A stretch of 64,000 bases of DNA from assembly GCA_023480735.1 (NCBI GenBank), contig JAMCXB010000011.1, positions 30,169 to 94,168 on the forward strand. Direction: 5' to 3'. Below, one piece after another: positions 7,954 through 44,289 of the stretch (position 1 is the first letter of the stretch; each line of letters starts with the position of its first letter). The stretch is from Bacteroidota bacterium. GTDB lineage: Bacteria; Bacteroidota; Ignavibacteria; Kryptoniales; JAKASW01. A program made the translations under genes and the position numbers. The notes under the pieces are model-generated. The model worked only from the letters and a program-made list of their open reading frames with translations. It was not told the DNA's origin and ran no database searches.

Positions 7954-9450
7954 TCAATCAACTTTTTTACCGTTGACATTTGAGAGCGACAATCCACTAA
8001 GCAGGCGTTCAACCTCCTCCGGGACATTGCCGTTTCTGTTGATGAATCCCATCCCTAAGTACACAATTATGGATGTGAGTGTCGGCGAAGCTAGTATTAG
8101 CGCCTGGCTCCCCTCGTATCCGACCACTTTCATTATTATGAAGGTCAGAACACCCGCCACGATTGAAGCAATCGCGGCTTTAGAGCCGCTGTGTTTAAAC
8201 CTGGGCATCAATCCGAGAATCATCGGAATTGCAGTCGGGCCTACCAGCGCGCCAAACCATGTTATGATTAATCCTATGACTCCGCCGAAGTCCCGGTAAA
8301 AGGAAGTGATGATCAAGGTCATAAATACGAATGTGAACGTCGCCGTCCTTGCCAGTCGTAATTCTCTTTTAGGGTCCATTCTCTTGAACTTCCTCGACAT
8401 GAAGGGGATAATGTCCTTTGTTATAACGGCAGATATCGTATTCGCGTCGGAGGTGACCATAGACAGGGTGGCGGAAAATATGCCGGCCAGCACTAAGCCA
8501 ACAAGTCCTGCAGGGAGGAATTTCCTAACCATCAGCGCGTATGATTCGGTCGGATCGGCAAGGTGCGGCATGAACAACGGCGCAGCCCACATCGGAAAGA
8601 ACAAGATCAACGGCCAAACCAAGTATAATGTACCGGACAGAAGTCCGGATTTCCTGGCGCTTGCCGCGTTCGGAGAGGCTATGTACCTTGTGGCCAAGCT
8701 CCACGTTCCTCCATTGTAGCTGAACGCCGACATAAGCATGTATGCCAGGAAGAACGCAAATGTGTAAGGACCGCTGAATGCACTTCCATGACCCTTGGGC
8801 AGCCGATGCCACATTCCGATTATGCTCCCTGTGCCGCCCAGCTTAGTGATAACCGTTACGAACATCAGGATGCCCGCCACTATCTGGATTAAGAACTGTA
8901 CGAAATCCGTATAGAGATCTGCCCATAATCCTCCAATCGTCGTGTAGACCAACGCTATTGCAGCGGTCATTACTGCACCGGCCATTACAGGCAGGCCGGT
9001 AAAGACATTTAACAGTATTCCGATCGAAGCCCACTTTGCAGCGACATCGAACAGCTTCAGGAGCGTACCGCTGAAGGCGGTTATCAGTTGAGTCGCTACG
9101 CTGTACCTTAGCTGCAGATATTCCGTGGGTGATCCGATGTTCAATTTCTGTCTCAGCCTTGACCATCTTGGTGCTATCAGGTATGCTCCGCCGATTACGG
9201 CAACAGATATCGCTACTGCCCACCATACATATATAGTGAATCCGTACGTGTAGGCAACTCCGGCAAACGCGACAAATACAACTCCACTGTATCCGGATAC
9301 GTGATGAGATATTCCTGCCAGCCACCATGGTACTTTTCCGCCGGCCACGAAGAAGTCGTTCGAGTTCTTCACTTTCCTGGAAGAATAGAACCCTATCAGT
9401 ACCATTAGCCCGAAGAAAATGGCTATTACGACATAATCCGGGAATTTCAT
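7954..9450 (-). CDS. Sodium:solute symporter (SSS family) transporter
   Basis: 498 aa and highly hydrophobic with many TM segments. The N-terminal 'FFVAGGKVPWWLAGIS' is typical of SSS transporters. Confidence 0.8.
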   Translation of the reverse strand: MKFPDYVVIAIFFGLMVLIGFYSSRKVKNSNDFFVAGGKVPWWLAGISHHVSGYSGVVFVAFAGVAYTYGFTIYVWWAVAISVAVIGGAYLIAPRWSRLRQKLNIGSPTEYLQLRYSVATQLITAFSGTLLKLFDVAAKWASIGILLNVFTGLPVMAGAVMTAAIALVYTTIGGLWADLYTDFVQFLIQIVAGILMFVTVITKLGGTGSIIGMWHRLPKGHGSAFSGPYTFAFFLAYMLMSAFSYNGGTWSLATRYIASPNAASARKSGLLSGTLYLVWPLILFFPMWAAPLFMPHLADPTESYALMVRKFLPAGLVGLVLAGIFSATLSMVTSDANTISAVITKDIIPFMSRKFKRMDPKRELRLARTATFTFVFMTLIITSFYRDFGGVIGLIITWFGALVGPTAIPMILGLMPRFKHSGSKAAIASIVAGVLTFIIMKVVGYEGSQALILASPTLTSIIVYLGMGFINRNGNVPEEVERLLSGLSLSNVNGKKVD

Positions 9451-20717: not shown

Positions 20718-21196
20718 GATGCTCAACTACGCGGTGCCGCAGACAATTAAGGTCATCTTTGGGAGCGAGACGATATGACTGCGTATAGAAACAGGGATAA
20801 ACCTCCACGGGCGAGTGTCGGCTAACCCCATCCGAGAAGATTGCCAGCCAATGATTGGCACTTCTTAAAGCGCACCCTCGTCAACGCGAATTTATACCCG
20901 GGTCTGAAAACGGATGGAATCAGATGCTGAAACCAGTTCGGTCCGCATGGCGCTCGGGCATGGCAACTTTTGTTATTCTTAGATACCGCCAGGCCTGACC
21001 GGATCAAAACGTACATGCCGATGAGTCCAGGGGTGTACATCTGGGGCAGTCTCTGCCGGGCGCTACCTGCCGTGGAGTGCTTCTTCGGACGATCGGTCCC
21101 GTTACCTTGGCATCTTGCTGATTATTTGCGGCTTTGCTCTGGGAGGTCCCTCAACTCGGCCGCTTACCTGCGAACAGGACTCCACCTCCAGACTGG

Positions 21197-21343
21197 TGTA
21201 AGGGGGAGGATTATTTAAACATTGCCGTTTTTGTTAAGTGTCGGAGTCACAGTGGGTTGAGTAGATTAGGGCGGACGAATTAAGTGAGCGAAATGAGAAA
21301 AAGTGGGAGCTTTTGAGAAATTACGGACGAATTATTTGAGCAT
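21197..21343 (+). repeat. Candidate prophage left end with three transposase-binding-like repeats
   Basis: It starts with TGTA. The motifs are GGATTATTTAAACAT (21208-21222), CGAATTAAGTGAGC (21276-21289) and CGAATTATTTGAGCAT (21328-21343). Their inverted counterparts lie at 57968-58007. Confidence 0.4.
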
Positions 21344-21465
21344 TACCCCGTAAAACGATCTAAATTTGGCGATTATGACCATTTGCCCCACAGAGAAAAT
21401 ATTGCGAAATTTAGACGGATTTAAGGTATTGATTTACCGATGACGAGTGACAAATTGACAAAAAA

Positions 21466-22443
21466 CTACTTTAAATGAGACTCAATCCAGTTATGGAGAT
21501 CGGGAGAGAGAGTGGAATATTTAGATATGAGCCAGTCGGCAGAATCCCGGTAATTATTAAAGCGGACTATCGGATCGCCGGTGTATAACTGTGGTGCGAG
21601 AGAACGAGTCTGCGTGTCGTAGACATGTAGATAGATTGCACTGCACCGGCAGTTGTAGTCGATCGGTGGTAATGGCCCCTCTCCCACGTTATAGACGTTT
21701 CCGTCGAGCGCCATATGGCTCGGTCGGGTGCGATAGTCGTGGATGGCCGAGTACTGCCACATCGGAAACCGATCCGGCATAGCGAGGACCTGGGAGAATT
21801 GACCCTGACTGTATGCACTCGCGAGGTTGGTACGGAAGACCGTCTGGAAATGTCCGGGATGGAGATCAGTGACGCCATAGGATTCGAAGAGACCATCGAC
21901 TTCTTTATTGAAGTCCGTCCAAGTCTCGTGGCTGTCAACCGCTTTAATAAGAGCGGCTTTGATCTCATCGAGTAATTGCTGCTGTTCGATACCCGAGATC
22001 ACGAGCGCTCTCCCACGAATTATCTTAAGTGCTTCCTCTGGAATAACACTGTAAGATAGTTTAACGGAGCTGTCGCATTCGATCCACTGCATCGCAGAGT
22101 AAGCGATGGCATTCTTGGCGATAATGGTACGTCCGGGCAGTTGACGAGCTTTATGGCTGAAGTGCGCGTCCTTCGCAATAATAAGACTTCTGCCGAGGGC
22201 ATCGCCAGTCTCGAGGCCATCCCGGAGAAGTTTCGATATACCACCGAGGAATTTCTCGTGCGGCGGATAGTTTGATAGTACCGCGAGTGCCGAATCGAAG
22301 GATCCCGCATCACGGACGTCACGCGAGACCGATCCCTTGAGACGCTTGTAAATGTCCGGAGCGGATTTAATCGAGTTATCGATGACGGTGTCGAGCTGAT
22401 TCTCGTATGCGTCATTATCTACCGGTGGCGGAGGAGTTTTTTT
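21466..22443 (-). CDS. MuF-like head morphogenesis protein (SPP1 gp7 / Mu F family); the N-terminal 117 codons lack a start codon
   Basis: The C-terminal region 'FRTNLASAYSQGQF...WQYSAIHDYRTRPSHMALDGNVY...PPIDYNCRCS' is the Phage_Mu_F motif. The first ATG/GTG/TTG is at 22092, but the same frame stays open and protein-like up to 22443, inside the end of the portal gene. Confidence 0.65.
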   Translation of the reverse strand, partial: KKTPPPPVDNDAYENQLDTVIDNSIKSAPDIYKRLKGSVSRDVRDAGSFDSALAVLSNYPPHEKFLGGISKLLRDGLETGDALGRSLIIAKDAHFSHKARQLPGRTIIAKNAIAYSAMQWIECDSSVKLSYSVIPEEALKIIRGRALVISGIEQQQLLDEIKAALIKAVDSHETWTDFNKEVDGLFESYGVTDLHPGHFQTVFRTNLASAYSQGQFSQVLAMPDRFPMWQYSAIHDYRTRPSHMALDGNVYNVGEGPLPPIDYNCRCSAIYLHVYDTQTRSLAPQLYTGDPIVRFNNYRDSADWLISKYSTLSPDLHNWIESHLK

Positions 22444-23843
22444 TTACCTTGCAGGCTCATGCCGGAATAATCGGACCCAAGCGTCGAGGGAGCGGACGGG
22501 GCAACAATCGGCGTCAGAACCTCATCGTCGGGACCGGGAAGCGGACGACCGTACTTATCGGCGACGTACTGTTTCGTGATAGGGAAGCCGATCGCTTGCA
22601 ACTCTCGATCAATCTTCACTTCCGTCAGGAGGTTAAGCGAACGCCCAACGTCGGTCTTCATGTAAGGATATACTTCCTGCGGGCCCCAGACGGCGTCGAC
22701 GTACACCCTTATAATGTCATCGTTAAATGTGGTATCAAGCGCCTTAGCGTCCGCTTCGACAATTTCGAGTTTGACCTCTTTTGCGGAATCTTCTGATCCG
22801 AGTTTGCCTGGAGTCGATTTCGACGAGCCGGTGTGACCCAATGCAACGACAGCGTACTGGTCGTCCACCCATTCCGCGACGTCGCCGTACACTTGATGCG
22901 TGGCGGCCTTCTGCATCCACTCAACAAATTCAATTTCAGAGTCCTTACTGATAACTGCTGCGGTATCCTGGCCCAACTTTCGGAGGGCTGAAACCAGCAG
23001 ATCCTTCTGGGTTGGATCGTTGGTATCATACTTCCCAATACGGATACCGAGGAGACGCTCGGCGAACATGACCCACCACTTCACGTCCCAGTTTTTGAAC
23101 AGCCACAGATATGCCAGAGTGCGAAGGAGCGACGTCCGGGCCGGATGTCCGGATCTTGCCTGGCAATAGCAGATCGCGAAGCGCTTCCTGATCCTCGGGT
23201 TGGATTCAAGCGAGATGCCATCGGTGGTGGCGTTCGCGAGTTCTTCATCCGAGACGATGCCGCGTAGCTGGTCGATCTGGCTGGGGTCGACGACGAACCT
23301 CAACTCTTCCGGATCACTCAGCGGGTCGCTGACTTTTCCGAAACGGAATTTCTTCTGGTGCTTCCATCGCACCCTGTCGAGCACGTATGTGGTGTCTCTC
23401 ACTTGCCAGAACAACTCGGAGACGGAGAAACCCTTCGGGACCGCGTCGAGGATGTCACCCTTCACCCTGTCGAGGTTCGGGATCGAGTCAATCAGTTTCT
23501 TCACATCGTCCGCGATCGCGAGTGACTTGTCGTCTTCGCCTCCGGCCACGATCTGGTAATTGCGACGAGTAACGGCGAGACGGCGATCTCCGAACACGCC
23601 TTGAAGCTTCCCGTCCTTCTCGAGCATCTCTTCGAAGAGTTCCGACTGGGCGTAGACATCGCCCGTGTCTGCCTGCTGCAAAAGAGACGCCAGGCGTTCG
23701 GGCGTCAGACCTTTGGATGGATAACTGGAGTACCGGTCGTTGATGCCGACGACCGCGACCTCGCGAGTCTCAGGGCGGTTAAGATCATCCTTCTTTGTGA
23801 TGCGAAGGGTGTCGGTGACTGATCGGAGAACATTCTTTACCAT
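22419..23843 (-). CDS. Portal protein (Mu gp29-like, DUF935)
   Basis: 'LTPERLASLLQQADTGDVYAQSELFEEMLEKDGKLQGVFGDRRLAV' matches the DUF935 portal signature. The ATG at 23843 follows TGAGGT, and the longer ORF to 23870 overlaps the upstream gene. Confidence 0.85.
   Translation of the reverse strand: MVKNVLRSVTDTLRITKKDDLNRPETREVAVVGINDRYSSYPSKGLTPERLASLLQQADTGDVYAQSELFEEMLEKDGKLQGVFGDRRLAVTRRNYQIVAGGEDDKSLAIADDVKKLIDSIPNLDRVKGDILDAVPKGFSVSELFWQVRDTTYVLDRVRWKHQKKFRFGKVSDPLSDPEELRFVVDPSQIDQLRGIVSDEELANATTDGISLESNPRIRKRFAICYCQARSGHPARTSLLRTLAYLWLFKNWDVKWWVMFAERLLGIRIGKYDTNDPTQKDLLVSALRKLGQDTAAVISKDSEIEFVEWMQKAATHQVYGDVAEWVDDQYAVVALGHTGSSKSTPGKLGSEDSAKEVKLEIVEADAKALDTTFNDDIIRVYVDAVWGPQEVYPYMKTDVGRSLNLLTEVKIDRELQAIGFPITKQYVADKYGRPLPGPDDEVLTPIVAPSAPSTLGSDYSGMSLQGKKKLLRHR
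22437..22445 (-). other. A9 homopolymer (T9 on + strand): candidate -1 frameshift or transcriptional-slippage site joining the portal and MuF frames
   Basis: The portal frame reads GGT AAA AAA AAA CTC ... TAG. The -1 frame reads (TAA) AAA AAA ACT CCT CCG CCA CCG = KKTPPPP and runs into MuF. Confidence 0.35.
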
Positions 23844-23850
23844 GATAACC

Positions 23851-24519
23851 TCAGAAATTGTAAGTGACAAAAAGTTTTATGCCGGGATGGAGGGTGCTGA
23901 GCGCATAGGGCAAAGCGCAGAGCGCGCCGACGGTGAATTCCTTAATGCGATAGCCAGCCCCGATACCGACGCCGTCGAGATCGGCGGCGAGGGTCGGTAG
24001 CTGGAAACGGCCGTCGAGCTGGAGGAATGAGACGGCGAGACAGGGGGACGGGAAGACACGGAGACTTGGGGACAGGGAGACCGCGAGACCAATCTGCCGG
24101 TAAACGCCGAATTGGAGCAGAGGCGGTAGATACTGCCATCTTTCGACTTTAAGAGAACGTGTGCCACCATGGGCGTAAATATGGTTGTCGCGGGAGAGGA
24201 TGATGACGGTGGTGTCGCCCTGGGGCTGACTGGGAGACTGGGGGACGGGGAGACGGGGAGAACCGATGATGCGGATCGCCTCTTTAATATCGGACTCTCT
24301 GAGGTCGGACGGGAGTTTCACTGGAGATTTTTGTCTCTCGAAAGGCGTGGAAGGCGGACGGTATTTTTTTTGCACAACCGGGGCGAACGTCGAATCTTTC
24401 GGCGTGAACAGTTCACTCACTCGCGAGTCGGTCGGCTGCGAGCATGAGCGCGGGAGCATGATGACAACGATGACGGCACAGATGGCGATAACGGCGATGC
24501 GGGTGAGGATGGATTTCAT
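23851..24519 (-). CDS. Membrane-anchored protein with a beta-rich C-terminus ending in Phe (outer-membrane-like); function unknown
   Basis: It has an N-terminal hydrophobic anchor (ILTRIAVIAICAVIVVIML), an alternating-polarity C-terminal region and a terminal '...KLFVTYNF'. It contains two in-frame G-rich repeat blocks. Confidence 0.3.
   Translation of the reverse strand: MKSILTRIAVIAICAVIVVIMLPRSCSQPTDSRVSELFTPKDSTFAPVVQKKYRPPSTPFERQKSPVKLPSDLRESDIKEAIRIIGSPRLPVPQSPSQPQGDTTVIILSRDNHIYAHGGTRSLKVERWQYLPPLLQFGVYRQIGLAVSLSPSLRVFPSPCLAVSFLQLDGRFQLPTLAADLDGVGIGAGYRIKEFTVGALCALPYALSTLHPGIKLFVTYNF
24029..24090 (+). repeat. G-rich GAGAC-type repeat block A
   Basis: gagacggcgagacagggggacgggaagacacggagacttggggacagggagaccgcgagacc, with reiterated GAGAC/GGGGAC units. 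Confidence 0.5.
24220..24264 (+). repeat. G-rich repeat block B (G-quadruplex motif; contains the 15-mer GAGACGGGGAGAACC)
   Basis: ctGGGGctgactGGGagactGGGGGacGGGGagacGGGGagaacc has five G3+ runs with loops of 2-6 nt. The 15-mer at 24250-24264 is identical to 28641-28655. Confidence 0.55.
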
Positions 24520-33193: not shown

Positions 33194-33507
33194 TTGCTTA
33201 CTCCTTTCTTGTTTAACTCACGTAGGGCGGACTTTCCCAAATCCGTGAGTGACCAGATTGATTCCGATCGCATTTTGATTTTTGCCACGAAGCCGTTCTG
33301 ACGCAACGACATGAGAAGATGACCGACCCTGAATATTGTCATATCGCATCCGCCCTTGCGGAGATGCGACCAAATTTCGCGCGTCGAGGCTTCATGGCAC
33401 GGCGGCGGAGTGAGCGTCGCGATGGCGGTGAGGACCTCCGGATAATGGTCGGAGGTCGACGAGAATTGACTCAGTCGATTAGCCACGAATACGCCTCCTT
33501 CAGGCAA
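33190..33507 (-). CDS. Winged-helix-like small protein
   Basis: 'STREIWSHLRKGGCDMTIFRVGHLLMSLRQNGFVAKI' is a MarR/wHTH-like pattern. Confidence 0.35.
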   Translation of the reverse strand: MPEGGVFVANRLSQFSSTSDHYPEVLTAIATLTPPPCHEASTREIWSHLRKGGCDMTIFRVGHLLMSLRQNGFVAKIKMRSESIWSLTDLGKSALRELNKKGVSK

Positions 33508-34418
33508 TCGCTGTCAATCTCTCCGAGGTCTTTCATCTGCATAATGTCGTACGCTCGTTTGAAGAGGTTGACGAACGACCGAATGCCGTCATGTTTCACC
33601 GACCAGTCCCACGCCTGTTTGATCTCCGCCTTGTCAAGGTCGTGAGGGAAACGGTCGGCGATCTGCTTTGCCTCACCGATGTCGATGTCACCGATTCGGC
33701 GCTTGATCGGGATTCGACTACGGAGATAACCGAGGTCGTCATTTTGCAGAAGCCTAAGCAGCCGATCGCTGGCGATGAGGACGATGGCACAGCGCTCCTG
33801 GTTGTCACCATGGATGTCACGGAGAAGTTTCAGGCTCTTCGGCTTGAGTTCGTCGGCTTCGTCGACGATGAGAAGCATCGGGTTGCGCTGCAGGTGACGG
33901 ATGATTGCAGCGAGGCGGTTGGCGGCGGGTCCGCTAATCTGGTCATTGATGTCGAGAGACTCGGCGATCTTGTTGAGCAGCTCCATGGGAGACGAAGCGC
34001 CTGATAACTCAATGAACCTGGCGTAGTCGGGGTGCTGCGCAACATACAGGAGAGCGGCTTCCGACTTTCCGCGTCCGAACCGTCCGACCACCATGCCGAT
34101 CTCTTTCCGCTTCCAGGTGAGTTCGATGACGGCTTCGATCTCGTCGACCGTCCTGGTACGGACAATCGTGTGACGTGCCACCCAGTAACGGTAGAAGCGG
34201 GCGATAGCGTCGAGGACCGTCGCGTCGTCAGCCTGGTATTTCCCACTGAGGACCTGAGAGACAGTGGACGTCTTGAAGCCAGTTGCCTTTTCGATGTCCT
34301 TTAGTTTGAGTTCCCCCGAGGAGACAAGCTCGGCGACTTTTTTCCGGATAGCCTGGGGATCATCGCCGGTGACGCGGAGATTTTCGACCAGATTAAGTTT
34401 GACTGCTGCTTGTGGCAT
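33471..34418 (-). CDS. MuB-like AAA+ ATPase (transposition target-DNA activator)
   Basis: The ATG at 34418 follows GAGGAGG. It has an N-terminal HTH ('IEKATGFKTSTVSQVLSG'), Walker A 'GRFGRGKSEA' and Walker B 'LLIVDEAD', and lies directly downstream of the transposase. Confidence 0.75.
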   Translation of the reverse strand: MPQAAVKLNLVENLRVTGDDPQAIRKKVAELVSSGELKLKDIEKATGFKTSTVSQVLSGKYQADDATVLDAIARFYRYWVARHTIVRTRTVDEIEAVIELTWKRKEIGMVVGRFGRGKSEAALLYVAQHPDYARFIELSGASSPMELLNKIAESLDINDQISGPAANRLAAIIRHLQRNPMLLIVDEADELKPKSLKLLRDIHGDNQERCAIVLIASDRLLRLLQNDDLGYLRSRIPIKRRIGDIDIGEAKQIADRFPHDLDKAEIKQAWDWSVKHDGIRSFVNLFKRAYDIMQMKDLGEIDSDCLKEAYSWLID

Positions 34419-34449
34419 GATTACGCCTCCTCTATAATGTGTGCCATGA

Positions 34450-34830
34450 TTACATTTCCCTGTCGAAGTGGCCGTCTTCGGGGTCATCACCCTCACCCTG
34501 TCCCTCTCCCTCCGGGAGAGGGGACGCCAGTTGACGGCCCTCAGGTATGTACGGGAGCGGTGAACGGTCATATTTCTCGCGGGCCATGTTGTACTTGCGG
34601 CACCATGCTTCAGTGGTTGGGGAGATGGAGAAGATCGCCTTCGGTCCGTAGAGGACCGAGTGAGAAAAGCCGGTCTCGCCTTTCGTGATGTCGATCTGGA
34701 GCATGACCTCCGTGCCGATTTTGCGGGTTGTCAAACGGCCAGCGCAAGTGGTGTGCCCCATGATCTCGAGAAAAGCCCAGGCGTCGATGTTCTCTTCCTG
34801 AATCGGGATTGTTGTGGCTTCGAAGTCCAT
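34450..34830 (-). CDS. Hypothetical protein between MuA and MuB
   Basis: 126-aa ORF. Its tail '...SPLPEGEGQGEGDDPEDGHFDREM*' is encoded by R9. Confidence 0.35.
   Translation of the reverse strand: MDFEATTIPIQEENIDAWAFLEIMGHTTCAGRLTTRKIGTEVMLQIDITKGETGFSHSVLYGPKAIFSISPTTEAWCRKYNMAREKYDRSPLPYIPEGRQLASPLPEGEGQGEGDDPEDGHFDREM
34486..34523 (+). repeat. Prophage hairpin repeat R9
   Basis: atcaccctcaccctgtccctctccc-tcc-gggagagggg. Confidence 0.75.
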
Positions 34831-34834
34831 TTTG

Positions 34835-36727
34835 CTACCTAATTTTGTTGACGGCTGCGATGGTAAGCTTTGTCGACTTCGCGAATGCCTTCGCAGTCTC
34901 TTCCAGCTCGACCATCTCTTTGTGTTTTTTGACTTGCTTGCTTTGTTCGATCGCTTCCTTCTCGATGCCGGTCATGACGACGACCTGGGGTGTTGACTTA
35001 GAGAGGAGTGCTTCCGGTACAGCTACGGCGGTTGAGAGCTTGCCTTCGAGCAGCAAGTACTTCGCGTCGGTGCGGGTAATGCCCTTGCGGACTTCCTGTA
35101 GTTCTTCTTTTAGGTCGCGCTCGTGGCGGCGGCGGTCTTTGAGTATTTTTACCCACCCACGGGCGTCCTTGCCGAACATGTCTTTGTTGGCGGCGGTCGC
35201 GATAAACTTTCCGTCGACGTAAATCGATACGACGCCGAGGTCCCGTAGGTCATAATAGATCTCCGCGCGCTTTCCGTTGTACTTAAACAATTCGTCGGAA
35301 TAGTATTCGCTTCCGAGGAGCGTGACCTGGCTGCGCTTGATCGGCCGCTTCTCGACGCGGTTCATTAAGAAGTCAAGGATGCGAACGTCGATCGTCCGGT
35401 TCTGGTGTTGGTTGGTGAGATAATATATGAGAGGCGATTGATCCTTGAGGGATCTGTGGATTTTGTTGTTGTAAACATTTACGGCAAGGGCAACGAGTTT
35501 GTCGAACGTCTCGACCTGCAGTATCTGTCCTGCCTTGATCTCTTCGCCGAGAGAATCCGGTTTGTTCAGGCGCATGTTGTTGCCCTTGTAGCCGGGCAGA
35601 TACTTGACCATACGCTGGATCGTACCGTACCATCTTTCCTGTTCGGCTTTACTCATACCGTGGTACGGCAGAGTGTAGTGGAGCCTGGTAATCCGGCTGA
35701 CGGAGAGGCGAGCCTGGTCGTTGAAGTCCACCTTCCCAAAGACCCTTTGAGTGTACTTTGAACGGTAGTCCTTGCCGTTATCGATCGTGACGTTTTCGGG
35801 GAGGCAATTGACATGGACGGGTTCGTAGTGGCCCTCACCGACCTCACCCCGACCCTCTCCTTCTAAAGGAGAGGAAGGCATCACAAACGCTTTGAGCTGG
35901 CCGCCCAGTACCGCGTTACGGAACGCCATAGCTATCGTGTCGGAGTTCGGCTGCCATGACAGGTAATAACCGACGATGAGGCGGGTCCGCATGTCGATGA
36001 ACGACGTAATCCACCGTCGGTCGAACTTTCCCTGCTCGTTCATGATGATGAAATCCAACTCGGTATGATCGCCGAACCACAGCTCGTTCACTGCGTACTG
36101 TTCCGGGTCACGGGTGACGAATGGCATCTGCTTGGCATCGAAGTCGTTCTTCCTAGAACGTCCGTAGCGGATGGAGATCTCCGATTCCCTCACTCGCCGG
36201 AGGTAGCGAACGACTGAGGAAAGTGCGGGTAGATCTCCAATCGCTGCGGGTGTACCATCATCGGTGACGACCTGGCCTGCGCGGGTCCTCGTTACGAGCG
36301 CCTTGTAGACGGCCTCCGCGTCGACGTTCTCGTGACTGTACAATGATTTCGCAAGGTCATCCAGCCCGATGCATTCGCCGGTCGTCGGCACGACAACAGA
36401 GAGATGCTTCGCCGAGCGGAGAGTCATCTTGTCGGAACGCTCGCTGCGTGCCACGACGTTTTCAATCGCGGCTCGAAGTTGCGGATGGTTGAGTACGGAT
36501 TCAAAGGACGAGCGGGGTTCGAGTCCGAAGATCTTCCGCAGTTTCGCTTTGTACCGGCGCTGCGTGCCAGCGGGAAGGCCGTGACTGGCGGCGATCGACT
36601 TCTCGAGCTCGCTCACGTTATCAGCGGTTGAGATTGAGAGCGTCATCGCGTCGATCTTGCGGATGACATCCGGGGTGAGCTTGTCGGCGGGGACGAGTTC
36701 GAGGTCTATGGATGATGGTACAGTCAC
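34835..36727 (-). CDS. MuA-type DDE transposase (rve core plus Mu transposase C-terminal region), carrying in-frame repeat R10
   Basis: 'WFGDHTELDFII' (D1), 'VTIDNGKDYRS' (D2) and 'PYHGMSKAEQERWYG' (E). The start is GTG at 36727. 'PSSPLEGEGRGEVGEG' between D1 and D2 is encoded by R10. Confidence 0.85.
   Translation of the reverse strand: MTVPSSIDLELVPADKLTPDVIRKIDAMTLSISTADNVSELEKSIAASHGLPAGTQRRYKAKLRKIFGLEPRSSFESVLNHPQLRAAIENVVARSERSDKMTLRSAKHLSVVVPTTGECIGLDDLAKSLYSHENVDAEAVYKALVTRTRAGQVVTDDGTPAAIGDLPALSSVVRYLRRVRESEISIRYGRSRKNDFDAKQMPFVTRDPEQYAVNELWFGDHTELDFIIMNEQGKFDRRWITSFIDMRTRLIVGYYLSWQPNSDTIAMAFRNAVLGGQLKAFVMPSSPLEGEGRGEVGEGHYEPVHVNCLPENVTIDNGKDYRSKYTQRVFGKVDFNDQARLSVSRITRLHYTLPYHGMSKAEQERWYGTIQRMVKYLPGYKGNNMRLNKPDSLGEEIKAGQILQVETFDKLVALAVNVYNNKIHRSLKDQSPLIYYLTNQHQNRTIDVRILDFLMNRVEKRPIKRSQVTLLGSEYYSDELFKYNGKRAEIYYDLRDLGVVSIYVDGKFIATAANKDMFGKDARGWVKILKDRRRHERDLKEELQEVRKGITRTDAKYLLLEGKLSTAVAVPEALLSKSTPQVVVMTGIEKEAIEQSKQVKKHKEMVELEETAKAFAKSTKLTIAAVNKIR
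35832..35874 (+). repeat. Prophage hairpin repeat R10 (double head, in frame inside the MuA catalytic core)
   Basis: ccctcaccgacctcaccccgaccctctcc-ttctaaa-ggagagg. Confidence 0.75.
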
Positions 36728-41253: not shown

Positions 41254-42711
41254 TTGCGGAGGTTTGTAGTGGCTTTGAAAGTAAATCAAAAGGCGGTCGA
41301 ACATCTGAGATCTCTGGTCAGCCAGGGAAAAGTCGATCGGAATTCTAACTGGAGTTTTTCAGCCGAGGATGGCAATGCCCTCCTTGGCGCGGCCGGCAGC
41401 GACTGGTCAAACTATTCCCAAAATCACTTAGCGGTAGATACCAGTGCTGCCGAGAATACTAAGGCGCGTTTCCATTATCCGGCGGGCAAGGACGGAAAGG
41501 TCTATCGTAGCGGAGTTATCGCGGCGAAGCAGAGAGCGGCGGCGCAGGGCGAGAAAGATATAGAGAACGCCGCGGACGATCTACTGCAGTTGATAGATCG
41601 CAAAGCGCAGAGCGCAAAGGGTGAAGTGAAAGCGAAGAGAGTGGTCTTCTGCCAGGTAGATTTAGGAGTAATAGCGGGAGACGAATTGCCGACCCGGATT
41701 AACCTCCTTCCGCTCGGCGAATGGAAGGGTTACCCTTCGGTTGATCAGAGTGGTAAACCCGTACTACTTTCTTTCAAAGTCACCCCGGATCGCGTAAAGC
41801 AAGCCATCGCTTACCTAAAGAGACTCAGGTCACGAAATTCAAACCTCGATCTCGTGATCGACAATGACCACTTAACTCACGCGGACACCTATGCGCCTGC
41901 CTTCGGTTGGATCAAAGATCTAATTGACGCGGGCGAGAAAGGACTGGACGCGGTGGTCGAGTGGACGGCGCTGGGTGCGGAAGCGTTGAAGAATAAACTC
42001 TACAGGTATATCTCGCCCGTGCTGGCGTTCGACCTGCCGGACAGCGCGACGGGAGAGATAATTCCCTTTGCCGTGACCGATGCGGGACTGACTAATCAAC
42101 CGTTTATAGAGTCTTTGCCTGCGGTAATGGCAAAGAAGATAATTGAAACAACAAACAACGCCCCGATGGGGCAAGGAGAAATCAAGATGGACAAAATCTT
42201 AGCACTGCTTCAGACGTGGCTTAAGCTCCCCGATGCGGCGACGCCGGACGAGGTGGCTACCGGTCTCGAGGCAAAACTAAAAGAAGAGAACGCCGAACCA
42301 GACGAGGTGCAGGCAAAGAAATTGCTTACCGTTATCGGCTTTGATGAGGGCACTACCGTTGAACAGGCCAAGGCCACCGTCATCATGGCAAAGCAGCACC
42401 AGAGCCAAACATTGAACGTCGCCCAGGAGCTGGCCGCGATGAAGGCCGCACAGCTCGAGCGGGACGTCAATGAATTAGTTGACGGTGCGATCCGCGAGGG
42501 GAAGGTGTTCCCTGTGAACCGCGAAGACTTCGTGGTGATGGCGAAAAAAGACTTCGCGGGGATCAAGACGTTCCTGTCCAAGGCGCCCGTCGTAGGTCCA
42601 TTGAATCCGATGCCGGCCGGCCGGGAGAGCGGCGGAGTAAAGGCTCCGAGCGACACCGACAAGGAGGTCGCGGCGGCGCTCGGCATAGATGCGGCGAAGA
42701 TGGTGGAATAA
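41254..42711 (+). CDS. Mu gpI-like head protease / scaffold protein
   Basis: 'INLLPLGEWKGYP', 'DLVIDNDHLTHADTYAPAFGWIKDL' and 'YISPVLAF' fit the Mu-like prophage I protein family. The Ala/Glu-rich C-terminal half is scaffold-like. Confidence 0.7.
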   Translation: MRRFVVALKVNQKAVEHLRSLVSQGKVDRNSNWSFSAEDGNALLGAAGSDWSNYSQNHLAVDTSAAENTKARFHYPAGKDGKVYRSGVIAAKQRAAAQGEKDIENAADDLLQLIDRKAQSAKGEVKAKRVVFCQVDLGVIAGDELPTRINLLPLGEWKGYPSVDQSGKPVLLSFKVTPDRVKQAIAYLKRLRSRNSNLDLVIDNDHLTHADTYAPAFGWIKDLIDAGEKGLDAVVEWTALGAEALKNKLYRYISPVLAFDLPDSATGEIIPFAVTDAGLTNQPFIESLPAVMAKKIIETTNNAPMGQGEIKMDKILALLQTWLKLPDAATPDEVATGLEAKLKEENAEPDEVQAKKLLTVIGFDEGTTVEQAKATVIMAKQHQSQTLNVAQELAAMKAAQLERDVNELVDGAIREGKVFPVNREDFVVMAKKDFAGIKTFLSKAPVVGPLNPMPAGRESGGVKAPSDTDKEVAAALGIDAAKMVE

Positions 42712-43278: not shown

Positions 43279-44289
43279 GTGAGGATGAAAGTGATTAAGA
43301 AAAGCTTAAAAGTAGTTATCGGGCTGGCGCTACTCGTCGGCACGATAGCGATTGTTAATTCGTGGACTGCCGCCTCTGGTATCAGTATGGCGCTGTTGAT
43401 CGGGCCGTCGACATCCGACTCGCTCTATCGCGGGTTCAAGGTAATTTTTAATGATGCGTTCAATAAAGCGCAGCCGAGTTATAATCGGATTGCGATGACG
43501 ATCCCGTCGAACACTAAGCAGGAAACCTATGCGTGGCTCGGCGCATTTCCGCGAATGAAAGAATGGATCGGGCCACGGAACGTCAAGAACTTAGCCGCGT
43601 CCGATTGGACAATTAAGAACAAGAAGTTCGAGGTCACGATCGAGATACCATCCGAGGACATCGAAGACGACACCTATAACCTGTTCAACCCCATGATCGG
43701 CGGAATGGGTATGAGTGCCAGGATGCATCCGGATGAGCTTGTGTTCTCGCTGCTCAATGCCGGCTTTACGCAGAAATGCTACGACGGCAAGAATTTCTTC
43801 GATACCACTCACGCGTTCGGCTCGAACAAGAGCACAAAAATATTAAACGCGACCTACTACGGGGCGGCACTTGCAGCGATTGGGCGCATTAAAGATTCGA
43901 CAGGCAATCCACTTTTTAACGGATCCGAAAAGCTTACACTCGTGACCGGGCCTGAACTGGAAGAAACCGCAAAGCAAATGTTGAATGCCGACTTTATTTC
44001 CGTTGGCGGCGGGTCGACGCAGAATAACGTCTGGAAGGGCACCGCGGATTACCTGAAGAGTCCGCAGGTCACCAGCCCGACAGCGTGGTTCATTATCGTG
44101 GACTTTATGGGATTGCGTCCGCTGATCTTTCAAGAACGGAAGGCACCGAGATTTATTACGAAGAATAACCCGCAGGATTCCGACTACGTATTTATGAACG
44201 ATAAATACGTTTACGGCGTAGATTCGCGGGACAACGCCGGCTACGGGCTGCCGCAATTGGCCTACGGTTCCGACGGAACGGTGGCGTGA
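43279..44289 (+). CDS. Major capsid protein (Mu gpT family)
   Basis: 'ETYAWLGAFPRMKEWIGPRNVKNLAASDWTIKNKKFEVTIEIPSEDIEDDTYNLF' matches the Mu-like gpT signature. The start is uncertain (43279, 43285 or 43387). Confidence 0.8.
   Translation: MRMKVIKKSLKVVIGLALLVGTIAIVNSWTAASGISMALLIGPSTSDSLYRGFKVIFNDAFNKAQPSYNRIAMTIPSNTKQETYAWLGAFPRMKEWIGPRNVKNLAASDWTIKNKKFEVTIEIPSEDIEDDTYNLFNPMIGGMGMSARMHPDELVFSLLNAGFTQKCYDGKNFFDTTHAFGSNKSTKILNATYYGAALAAIGRIKDSTGNPLFNGSEKLTLVTGPELEETAKQMLNADFISVGGGSTQNNVWKGTADYLKSPQVTSPTAWFIIVDFMGLRPLIFQERKAPRFITKNNPQDSDYVFMNDKYVYGVDSRDNAGYGLPQLAYGSDGTVA

Follow-up and report, generated by a model that had tools for sequence, protein, structure and literature searches.

A conserved run of nine A's at the portal-MuF junction of Mu-like prophages as a candidate site of programmed transcriptional slippage

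How can a phage head gene be expressed when the first third of its reading frame holds no ordinary start codon? This question is raised by the MuF gene of a Mu-like prophage in a Bacteroidota bacterium, which was analyzed within a stretch of 64,000 nucleotides of contig JAMCXB010000011.1 (the window; positions refer to it unless another locus is named). MuF is encoded on the minus strand in the -1 frame relative to the portal gene and overlaps the 3′ end of the latter, where the last portal codons are CAA GGT AAA AAA AAA CTC CTC CGC CAC CGG TAG. Here, we propose with a probability of roughly 60% that the nine A's in this sequence (A9) are a conserved programmed recoding site, and that the shift would be made mainly by the RNA polymerase of the host. 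Standard decoding would yield the portal protein of 474 amino acids (aa) ending with KKKLLRHR*, and in a fraction of events the -1 frame would be entered at A9, so that a short Pro-rich linker would lead into MuF. For this, the RNA polymerase would insert one extra A over the T9 template, turning A9 into A10 in the mRNA; a ribosomal -1 slip on A_AAA_AAA would give the identical protein and may contribute. MuF would have lost its own initiation codon, leaving recoding as its only expression route.

The start-less part of the MuF frame

Both gene products could be assigned to known families. The portal protein, which is of the Mu gp29 type, matched Portal_Mu (PF06074) over residues 68-432 (1.2e-73; 248.8 bits, cut-off 23.9) and PHROG 113 portal (1.8e-85), has 8rka and 9khx as solved portal relatives, and ends in its unshifted form with ...SLQGKKKLLRHR*. 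The gene directly downstream carries a Phage_Mu_F domain (1.4e-15; 58.4 bits, cut-off 29.6) and matched PHROG 220 'minor head protein and DNA pilot' at 4.4e-28. No sequence relative of MuF was found among solved structures, the best match in a phage collection (cultured relatives) reached only about 33% identity over about 55% of MuF, and AlphaFold, given a 19-row alignment, modelled the MuF frame with a predicted local distance difference test score (pLDDT) of only 60.

The arrangement of the junction is as the original prediction, made from the DNA letters of the window, had described it. A9 (T9 on the plus strand) is located at 22437-22445, five codons ahead of the portal stop TAG (22421-22419), and the portal frame and its -1 frame, which is the MuF frame, meet on GGT AAA AAA AAA CTC. 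Upstream, a TAA at 22446-22444, in which the last base of GGT is joined by the first two A's, terminates the -1 frame, and from 22443 on the frame is open. A codon scan agreed that the first ATG, GTG or TTG of the MuF frame appears at 22092 and that the 117 codons before it are free of stops and contain a single CTG (codon 102); a few ATT, ATC and ATA codons are also found there.

Three lines of evidence argue that this start-less N-terminal third is translated and under purifying selection. First, in a database search with the entire frame, homologues of 300-336 aa were aligned over 94-98% of it, and the N-termini of full-length homologues (e.g. A1) fall on the start-less part (MTFDESKYEDQLDTLIKNS with VDNDAYENQLDTVIDNS). 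Second, comparison of the first 115 codons with the nearest relative (L001) gave nonsynonymous and synonymous rates (dN and dS) of 0.176 and 2.63 in the MuF frame, whereas dN/dS exceeded 1 in both other frames of the stretch. Third, the differences from L001 are concentrated at third codon positions (22/15/66 at positions 1/2/3). Accordingly low is the standing of a decaying pseudogene which lost its start codon and retained a residual open frame; with strong purifying selection on the start-less part, an intact frame of 325 codons and a start-less layout kept in relatives down to 38% identity, it is scarcely credible.

Judged by these comparisons, the ATG at 22092 is not the true start of MuF. 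The called MuF products have 178-198 aa as against about 323 aa (P0003, P0004 and P0014), with the shortened calls at 21466-22092 in the window (P0003, 178 aa), L001:1129-1725 and L002:4001-4588, and the source annotation 'SPP1 gp7 family' was placed on these shortened proteins. Another open reading frame (ORF) at 22020-22415 (131 aa), whose ATG lies in the portal frame shortly past the portal stop, was rejected as not coding, dN/dS being above 1 there. As a side observation, the portal frame of L001 stays open for 315 further codons past the portal stop and spans the entire MuF gene (L001:770-1717); this long ORF is probably non-coding, as the corresponding frame of the window has a dN/dS above 1.

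The A-run in related loci

Taken alone the A9 is not significant, since one such run in 64 kb is the chance level (mean of 0.98 in dinucleotide shuffles), and the weight therefore rests on its conservation in relatives and on the coding signal of the start-less stretch. In the whole host genome seven A9/T9 runs and no longer ones were counted, which is mildly below the expectation from base composition (about 12 plus about 4).

Relatives were gathered blind to the run by protein patterns from the conserved MuF core, with species-representative genomes, IMG/VR and metagenome contigs as sources. Thereby, 21 distinct loci sharing the layout were obtained from IMG/VR contigs, JGI/ENA metagenomes and metagenome-assembled genomes (MAGs) labelled Bacteroidota or Ignavibacteriales, with MuF proteins 38-78% identical to that of the window. 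All 21 have at least nine A's and a MuF gene in the -1 frame, which is open at or just before the run, and the first ordinary start codon follows only 16-128 codons into this frame. The portal stop is found five codons past the run in 18 loci and after four, two and six codons in L003, L008 and L053, respectively, the last offset resulting from an A10 run that reaches one base further. In the portal frame AAA AAA AAA is followed by CTY, TTG, ATT or GTA, and the portal tail KKKLLxxR* is conserved.

At the nucleotide level, the run is the sole invariant block of the 21-locus alignment, amid scrambled flanks. Its Lys codons are always AAA, as compared to a gene-wide AAA share of Lys codons of 52%, and of 9% in L018; the two closest loci differ by a dS of 2.6. 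Two loci have A10, and in both the neighbouring base was substituted to A and not inserted, so that the frame relation is kept. With regard to frame outcomes, ten A's lead from the portal into MuF, nine to a stop after five codons, and eight to a stop after 2-9 codons, in one locus 22. The properties expected of programmed transcriptional slippage, namely a run of about nine or more, its conservation amid scrambled sites and a meaningful joined frame, are thus found together. The original prediction had proposed a programmed shift or slippage giving a portal-MuF protein and had suggested comparison with relatives; the 21 conserved loci, of which the closest have no ordinary start for MuF, lend this proposal support, the product itself being a predicted one. 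Neither of the two outcomes that it had named as refuting was obtained.

The original prediction had also considered a homopolymer error in the assembly as a trivial alternative. Such an artefact, i.e. a true A10 that was misassembled, or a contingency locus switching at the DNA level between A9 (separate genes) and A10 (fused genes), would agree with homopolymers being error-prone in sequencing and replication and with contigs of one public sequencing run (X2) that break around the A's. However, 21 independent assemblies from many projects are all in the split phase and none is fused, and in the two A10 loci the portal and MuF frames relate to each other as in the A9 loci. Furthermore, contigs of the public runs X1 and X3 and of a minor strain in X2 cross the A's without gaps and show exactly A9, in agreement with the length given by the original prediction; this evidence on run length comes from assembled Logan contigs, in which minority run lengths do not show. 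A run length varying among strains, as would mark a contingency locus, was not seen in the 21 loci or the contigs, and both forms of this explanation are very unlikely. The window also does not hold a single-ORF fusion, because the portal frame ends at 22419 and MuF is read in its -1 frame.

Could MuF instead start independently, without any recoding? Relatives lacking the run are instructive here (L063, L065, L066, L067, L059-L061, L009, L021, L023 and L024). In these, the MuF start codon (ATG, GTG or TTG) shares bases with the portal stop (ATGA, GTGA, TTGA or TAATG) where the window reads CGG TAG AT, and the portal tails are homologous, e.g. GKIKLLTRR*. A MuF gene of the window starting at a non-canonical codon, or by re-initiation after the portal TAG, with the run as an A-rich leader, would agree with this coupling at exactly that place, with the ATC, ATT and ATA codons of the start-less stretch, and with the fact that A-rich leaders favour initiation in Bacteroidota. 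Against it, the ancestral ATG was replaced variously by GTA, ATA or TTA and no near-cognate start is conserved, the nearest ATG, GTG or TTG is as distant as stated above in all A-run loci, homology sets in with the codons right past the portal stop, and in 21 of 21 loci the -1 frame is already open at the run. Nine unbroken A's would not be needed by an A-rich leader either, and the leader reading of the run was rejected as no start codon follows it. Altogether, an independent start appears improbable. MuF genes with an own ATG or GTG occur only in more distant relatives and the run is broken there, which fits a run that is kept where the expression of MuF needs it.

Transitions between both states can be followed in the MuF tree. 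In this tree, 20 of the 21 run loci fall into one clade of 25 rows (Shimodaira-Hasegawa-like approximate likelihood ratio test, SH-aLRT, 93), in which five own-start loci are nested, and the remaining run locus (L008) belongs to the other clade; at least four changes between run and own start are forced by well-supported branches. In L063, which reads GGA AAA ATA AAA CTT CTA...CGATGA, one T-to-A change would make the run.

A third state is represented by the more distant loci L011, L068 and L074. In each of these, Portal_Mu and Phage_Mu_F follow one another in a single ORF (739-817 aa) that has no long A-run, and direct portal-MuF fusions are also described for Microbacterium phages (PMC7302621). 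Such natural single ORFs indicate that the fusion protein is viable. The recoded product predicted for the window would have the same order and spacing (Portal_Mu at 68-432, MuF at about 627-737), with the junction segment ...QGKKKTPPPPVD and, in the MuF part before residue 118, TPPPPVDNDAYENQLDTVIDNSIK. The junction ...SLQGKKK-TPPPP-VDND... given by the original prediction is the same for polymerase slippage and ribosomal frameshifting; it matches the product of either mechanism and does not tell the two apart.

Runs at the same junction were also found in other lineages. L029:2477-2487 (IMGVR_UViG_3300037628_000897), a distant Portal_Mu/MuF pair of a separate lineage, has an A11 run (...GAT GAT AAA AAA AAA AAG TAA), and its MuF is in the -1 frame with the first start 41 codons in. 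In L161:1598-1607 (IMGVR_UViG_3300002509_000003), a Portal_Mu gene ends with ...GAA AAA AAA AAG TAG (A10) and is followed in the -1 frame by a MuF gene that is start-less for 39 codons and carries a C-terminal CdiA_C toxin domain. L154:1495-1503 (IMGVR_UViG_3300028388_002946) contains a single ORF of 808 aa with an in-frame A9 between Portal_Mu and Phage_Mu_F, and the two other frames close after 4 and 20 codons; this looks like the reverse configuration, in which slippage would yield a portal-only protein. These three loci agree with a repeated acquisition of A-runs by the junction. L072 (1434-1475) has A_AAA_AAA (A7) at the portal end, an 8-bp hairpin (GGGCTTAG...CTAAGCCC) 7 nt downstream, and MuF in the -1 frame. 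It is ambiguous, because an in-frame ATG is located directly past the hairpin and coupling by re-initiation is equally possible.

Polymerase or ribosome

That recoding as such takes place at the junction, at whichever level, is highly probable from the comparison of the loci. Given recoding, we consider polymerase slippage about twice as likely as ribosomal frameshifting to be the main route, owing to the lack of an RNA element, run lengths of at least nine, the efficiency that would be needed, and an A9 in the dnaX gene of the host.

A mainly ribosomal route, with the same recoding and products, would be a -1 frameshift on A_AAA_AAA (A3-A9) of an unedited A9 mRNA. The slippery heptamer is in the correct phase in 21 of 21 loci, and bacteria are known to shift on both A_AAA_AAA and A_AAA_AAG (PMC3711429). 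Also, L029 and L161 finish their runs with A_AAA_AAG right before the stop, L072 with its A7, 7 nt and 8-bp hairpin has the classical layout, and the first Lys of KKK is kept in run-less relatives, so that the heptamer plus this Lys would also make up nine A's. On the other side, a conserved stimulator, be it a hairpin or pseudoknot 5-9 nt downstream or a Shine-Dalgarno-like element upstream, was not found. RNAalifold gave 0 consensus pairs between -15 and +87 of the run for the 21 loci, and single-sequence folds of 50 nt upstream plus 70 nt downstream in 22 loci had z-scores of -2 to +1 in most cases, and no position was common to them. Bacteroidota-type hosts use little Shine-Dalgarno pairing, which makes a stimulator of that kind unlikely, and shifting on A_AAA_AAA without a stimulator is usually inefficient, which counts against the ribosome as the main agent. 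If only a few percent of events were shifted, most portal dodecamers would lack MuF. Finally, the structure-less runs at the junction (those of this clade and of L029, L161 and L154) all have at least nine A's, and the sole A7 locus (L072) is the one with the hairpin. According to PMC5009743, bacterial RNA polymerase becomes efficient at slipping once a run reaches nine A's or T's, and Thermus dnaX makes use of this. Hence, a mainly ribosomal shift is possible but rather unlikely.

The host genome itself offers a parallel for slippage by its polymerase. Its dnaX gene (genome G000, contig C18:7069-8781; NCBIfam dnaX_nterm, 453 bits) contains an A9 at 8196-8204, which corresponds to residue 376 at the tau/gamma boundary and reads GAA TTA AAA AAA AAC TTG; both other frames close within 3-12 codons, and no stable hairpin was found downstream of this A9. 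The run has exactly nine A's in all 18 genomes of the genus (loci L102-L119), and in one of them (L117) it stands in another codon phase, from which it follows that its length and not its phase is kept. By analogy, the dnaX A9 of the host genus looks like a transcriptional slippage site of the Thermus type. The dnaX gene of a second genus was dropped as a further parallel, as its tract is an A7 near the C-terminal end of the gene and not at the tau/gamma boundary.

Several points weigh against the A9 as a site of mainly transcriptional slippage. Every A9 holds an in-phase A_AAA_AAA, so the heptamer is unavoidable and a ribosomal shift fits the sequence too, and the analogy between the host dnaX and the portal run is indirect. 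In three metatranscriptome runs of a related study, none of the sampled window words were found. The abundant strain of X2 has no contig across the run: its contigs end 12 nt before the A's and begin again 33 nt past them (window 22425-22478), with both broken ends running on into inverted window sequence; these breaks are probably assembly-graph trouble at the homopolymer. Moreover, the KKK and LL residues are partly kept as protein in run-less relatives (GKIKLL), so that conservation of the run may in part reflect the portal tail and not a nucleotide signal. The single-ORF fusions lacking an A-run imply that a low stoichiometry is not obligatory.

The comparison of the loci shows that the run is conserved, that the start-less stretch is coding and lacks a start, and that in-frame fusions exist in nature; that slippage occurs at A9, its level and efficiency, and what becomes of the fusion in the virion are inferred. 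Fused subunits would bring MuF into the prohead, and the efficiency of slippage would set their share among the 12 portal subunits. The portal C-terminus faces the capsid interior, and a C-terminal fusion would thus place MuF where the non-covalent complex of SPP1 places it. For most particles to hold one MuF, a shift efficiency of at least 10% would be needed.

Prophage context, significance and known systems

On the basis of Pfam matches, the window holds a Mu-like prophage (Table 1). The leftward arm of the element ends with portal and MuF, MuF being its last gene (window 21193-21466), and related IMG/VR contigs (ends of L015-L022) stop 300-400 nt past MuF. The transposase genes share this arm with MuF, and protease I and capsid gpT are located on the other arm. 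Late genes of Mu-like phages are transcribed by the host polymerase. The host genome is a MAG of 2.8 Mb with 90% completeness, the sequencing runs holding window sequence are mine-tailings and mine-drainage metagenomes, and two related loci belong to genomes of the GTDB class of the host, with Bacteroidota and Chitinophagales as record labels. As a separate observation, C-rich repeats of the type CTCCCCGTCTCCCCGTCCCCC are present at window 24029-24264 (minus strand) within an ORF of 222 aa upstream of the portal gene.

Table 1. Features of the junction and of the prophage in the window
Feature	Position	Strand	Basis
MuF frame, 325 codons stop to stop, end including stop codon	21466..22443	minus	open-frame translation
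Start-less N-terminal third of MuF, 117 codons without ATG, GTG or TTG	22093..22443	minus	codon scan, homology, dN/dS
First in-frame ATG, codon 118; gene callers take the ATG at 22092 or a later start	22090..22092	minus	codon scan
Phage_Mu_F domain (PF04233), open-frame residues 160-270	21634..21966	minus	Pfam
Portal gene (Mu gp29 type), 474 aa	22419..23843	minus	ATG at 23843, TAG ending at 22419; translation
A9 run (AAA AAA AAA in portal frame; T9 on plus strand), proposed slippage/frameshift site	22437..22445	minus	sequence
Dual-coding overlap, portal tail LLRHR* (frame 0) and linker (T)PPPPVD (frame -1)	22419..22436	minus	reading frames
Predicted recoded product, portal 1-469 + TPPPP + MuF, 792 aa	21466..23843	minus	inference
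Mu transposase C-terminal domain	34835-36727	minus	Pfam
MuB-like AAA protein	33471-34571	minus	Pfam
Mu protease I	41254-42711	plus	Pfam
Mu capsid gpT	43279-44289	plus	Pfam

In full-text literature searches, no published description of recoding at a portal or MuF gene was found. The word 'portal' does not occur in the 300,000 characters searched of the Atkins 2016 recoding review, and neither the GeneTack survey nor the MuF survey of Jamet et al. (2017) mentions portal/MuF recoding. As far as could be found, the kind of mechanism is therefore known, and the gene pair and its spread are undescribed. We regard it as slightly better than an even chance that the loci represent a widespread, unannotated class of slippage sites in Mu-type head modules. 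In this class, bare runs of 9-11 A's would set the MuF-bearing share of the 12 portal subunits, and in some phages that of a MuF-borne toxin as well, lineages would pass between coupled, slippage-joined and fused states by single-base changes, and the polymerase property used would be the same as in dnaX of the Bacteroidota host.

For annotation, this would mean that gene callers lose the first third of MuF and miss the fusion altogether, and that the annotation of portal and MuF is systematically wrong in many Bacteroidota phages and prophages. For head assembly, a covalent tether to a slippage-defined fraction of portal subunits would be a way to bring few copies of an internal head protein to the portal vertex. 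Some MuF proteins carry toxin domains, and with CdiA_C behind the same device in L161 the run would determine how much toxin each virion carries. Genes in the coupled, the recoded and the fused state stand side by side, one substitution apart, and offer a natural series for the gain and loss of recoding sites. Together with the tail chaperone G/GT and T7 gene 10, the head-module case would belong to the few conserved recoding sites listed for phages, and conserved A9 slippage is likewise suggested for dnaX of an uncultured Bacteroidota genus.

Among known systems, the tau/gamma site of Thermus thermophilus dnaX is described as transcriptional slippage on A9 (Larsen et al. 2000, as summarized in PMC5009743 and PMC3711429). 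It shares with portal-MuF the nine A's, the absence of a stimulatory structure and quickly closing alternative frames, and in both cases one DNA stretch would give two proteins with a common N-terminus at a set ratio. In Thermus, however, the long protein is the in-frame one and slippage truncates it, whereas for portal-MuF the standard product is the short one and slippage would join two genes. Also, dnaX encodes a replicase, while portal and MuF are phage head genes for which slippage is a proposal from sequence comparison.

The fusion of overlapping ORFs by slippage is described for mxiE and spa13 of Shigella flexneri and for insertion sequence (IS) orfAB genes (Penno 2005, 2006; Baranov 2005; cited by PMC3711429). 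Overlapping frames, a start-less downstream frame, a run of about nine A's or T's and a nucleotide added to the mRNA are features that portal-MuF would have in common with them. The difference is in the proteins, which are regulators, secretion components and transposases there and virion proteins here. We know of no report of slippage of the mxiE/IS type in phage head genes.

For phage morphogenesis, the closest parallel is offered by the lambda-type tail chaperones G/GT, which are reportedly made via -1 ribosomal frameshifting, as attributed to Levin et al. in 1993 and to Xu, Hendrix and Duda in 2004. In both cases a conserved recoding site is located in a morphogenesis module, a start-less second part is involved, and a major short product would be accompanied by a minor fusion; the product ratio is thought to matter for assembly. 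Unlike portal-MuF, G/GT uses varied heptamers of the G_GGA_AAG type, is shifted by the ribosome and belongs to the tail module, whereas portal-MuF has a long homopolymer, belongs to the head module and has transcription as the more likely level.

With respect to the proteins themselves, SPP1 has the same gene order and partnership. Its portal (gp6) forms a non-covalent complex with gp7 of the MuF family and brings it into the procapsid (Stiege et al. 2003, via PMC6316719 and PMC5576092), and 1-2 or 'a few' copies of gp7 are given per capsid (PMC6316719, PMC5576092), a number with which a minor fused fraction would fit. Unlike the window MuF, gp7 has an own start codon and is a separate polypeptide, and the portals of the two phages fall into different Pfam families. 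The single-ORF fusions of Microbacterium clusters EA3/EA5/EA8/EB (PMC7302621) and of L011, L068 and L074 resemble the predicted product in domain order, spacing and a length of 739-817 aa. They differ in that MuF is carried by every portal subunit and no recoding is involved, whereas in the window the two parts are encoded in separate frames.

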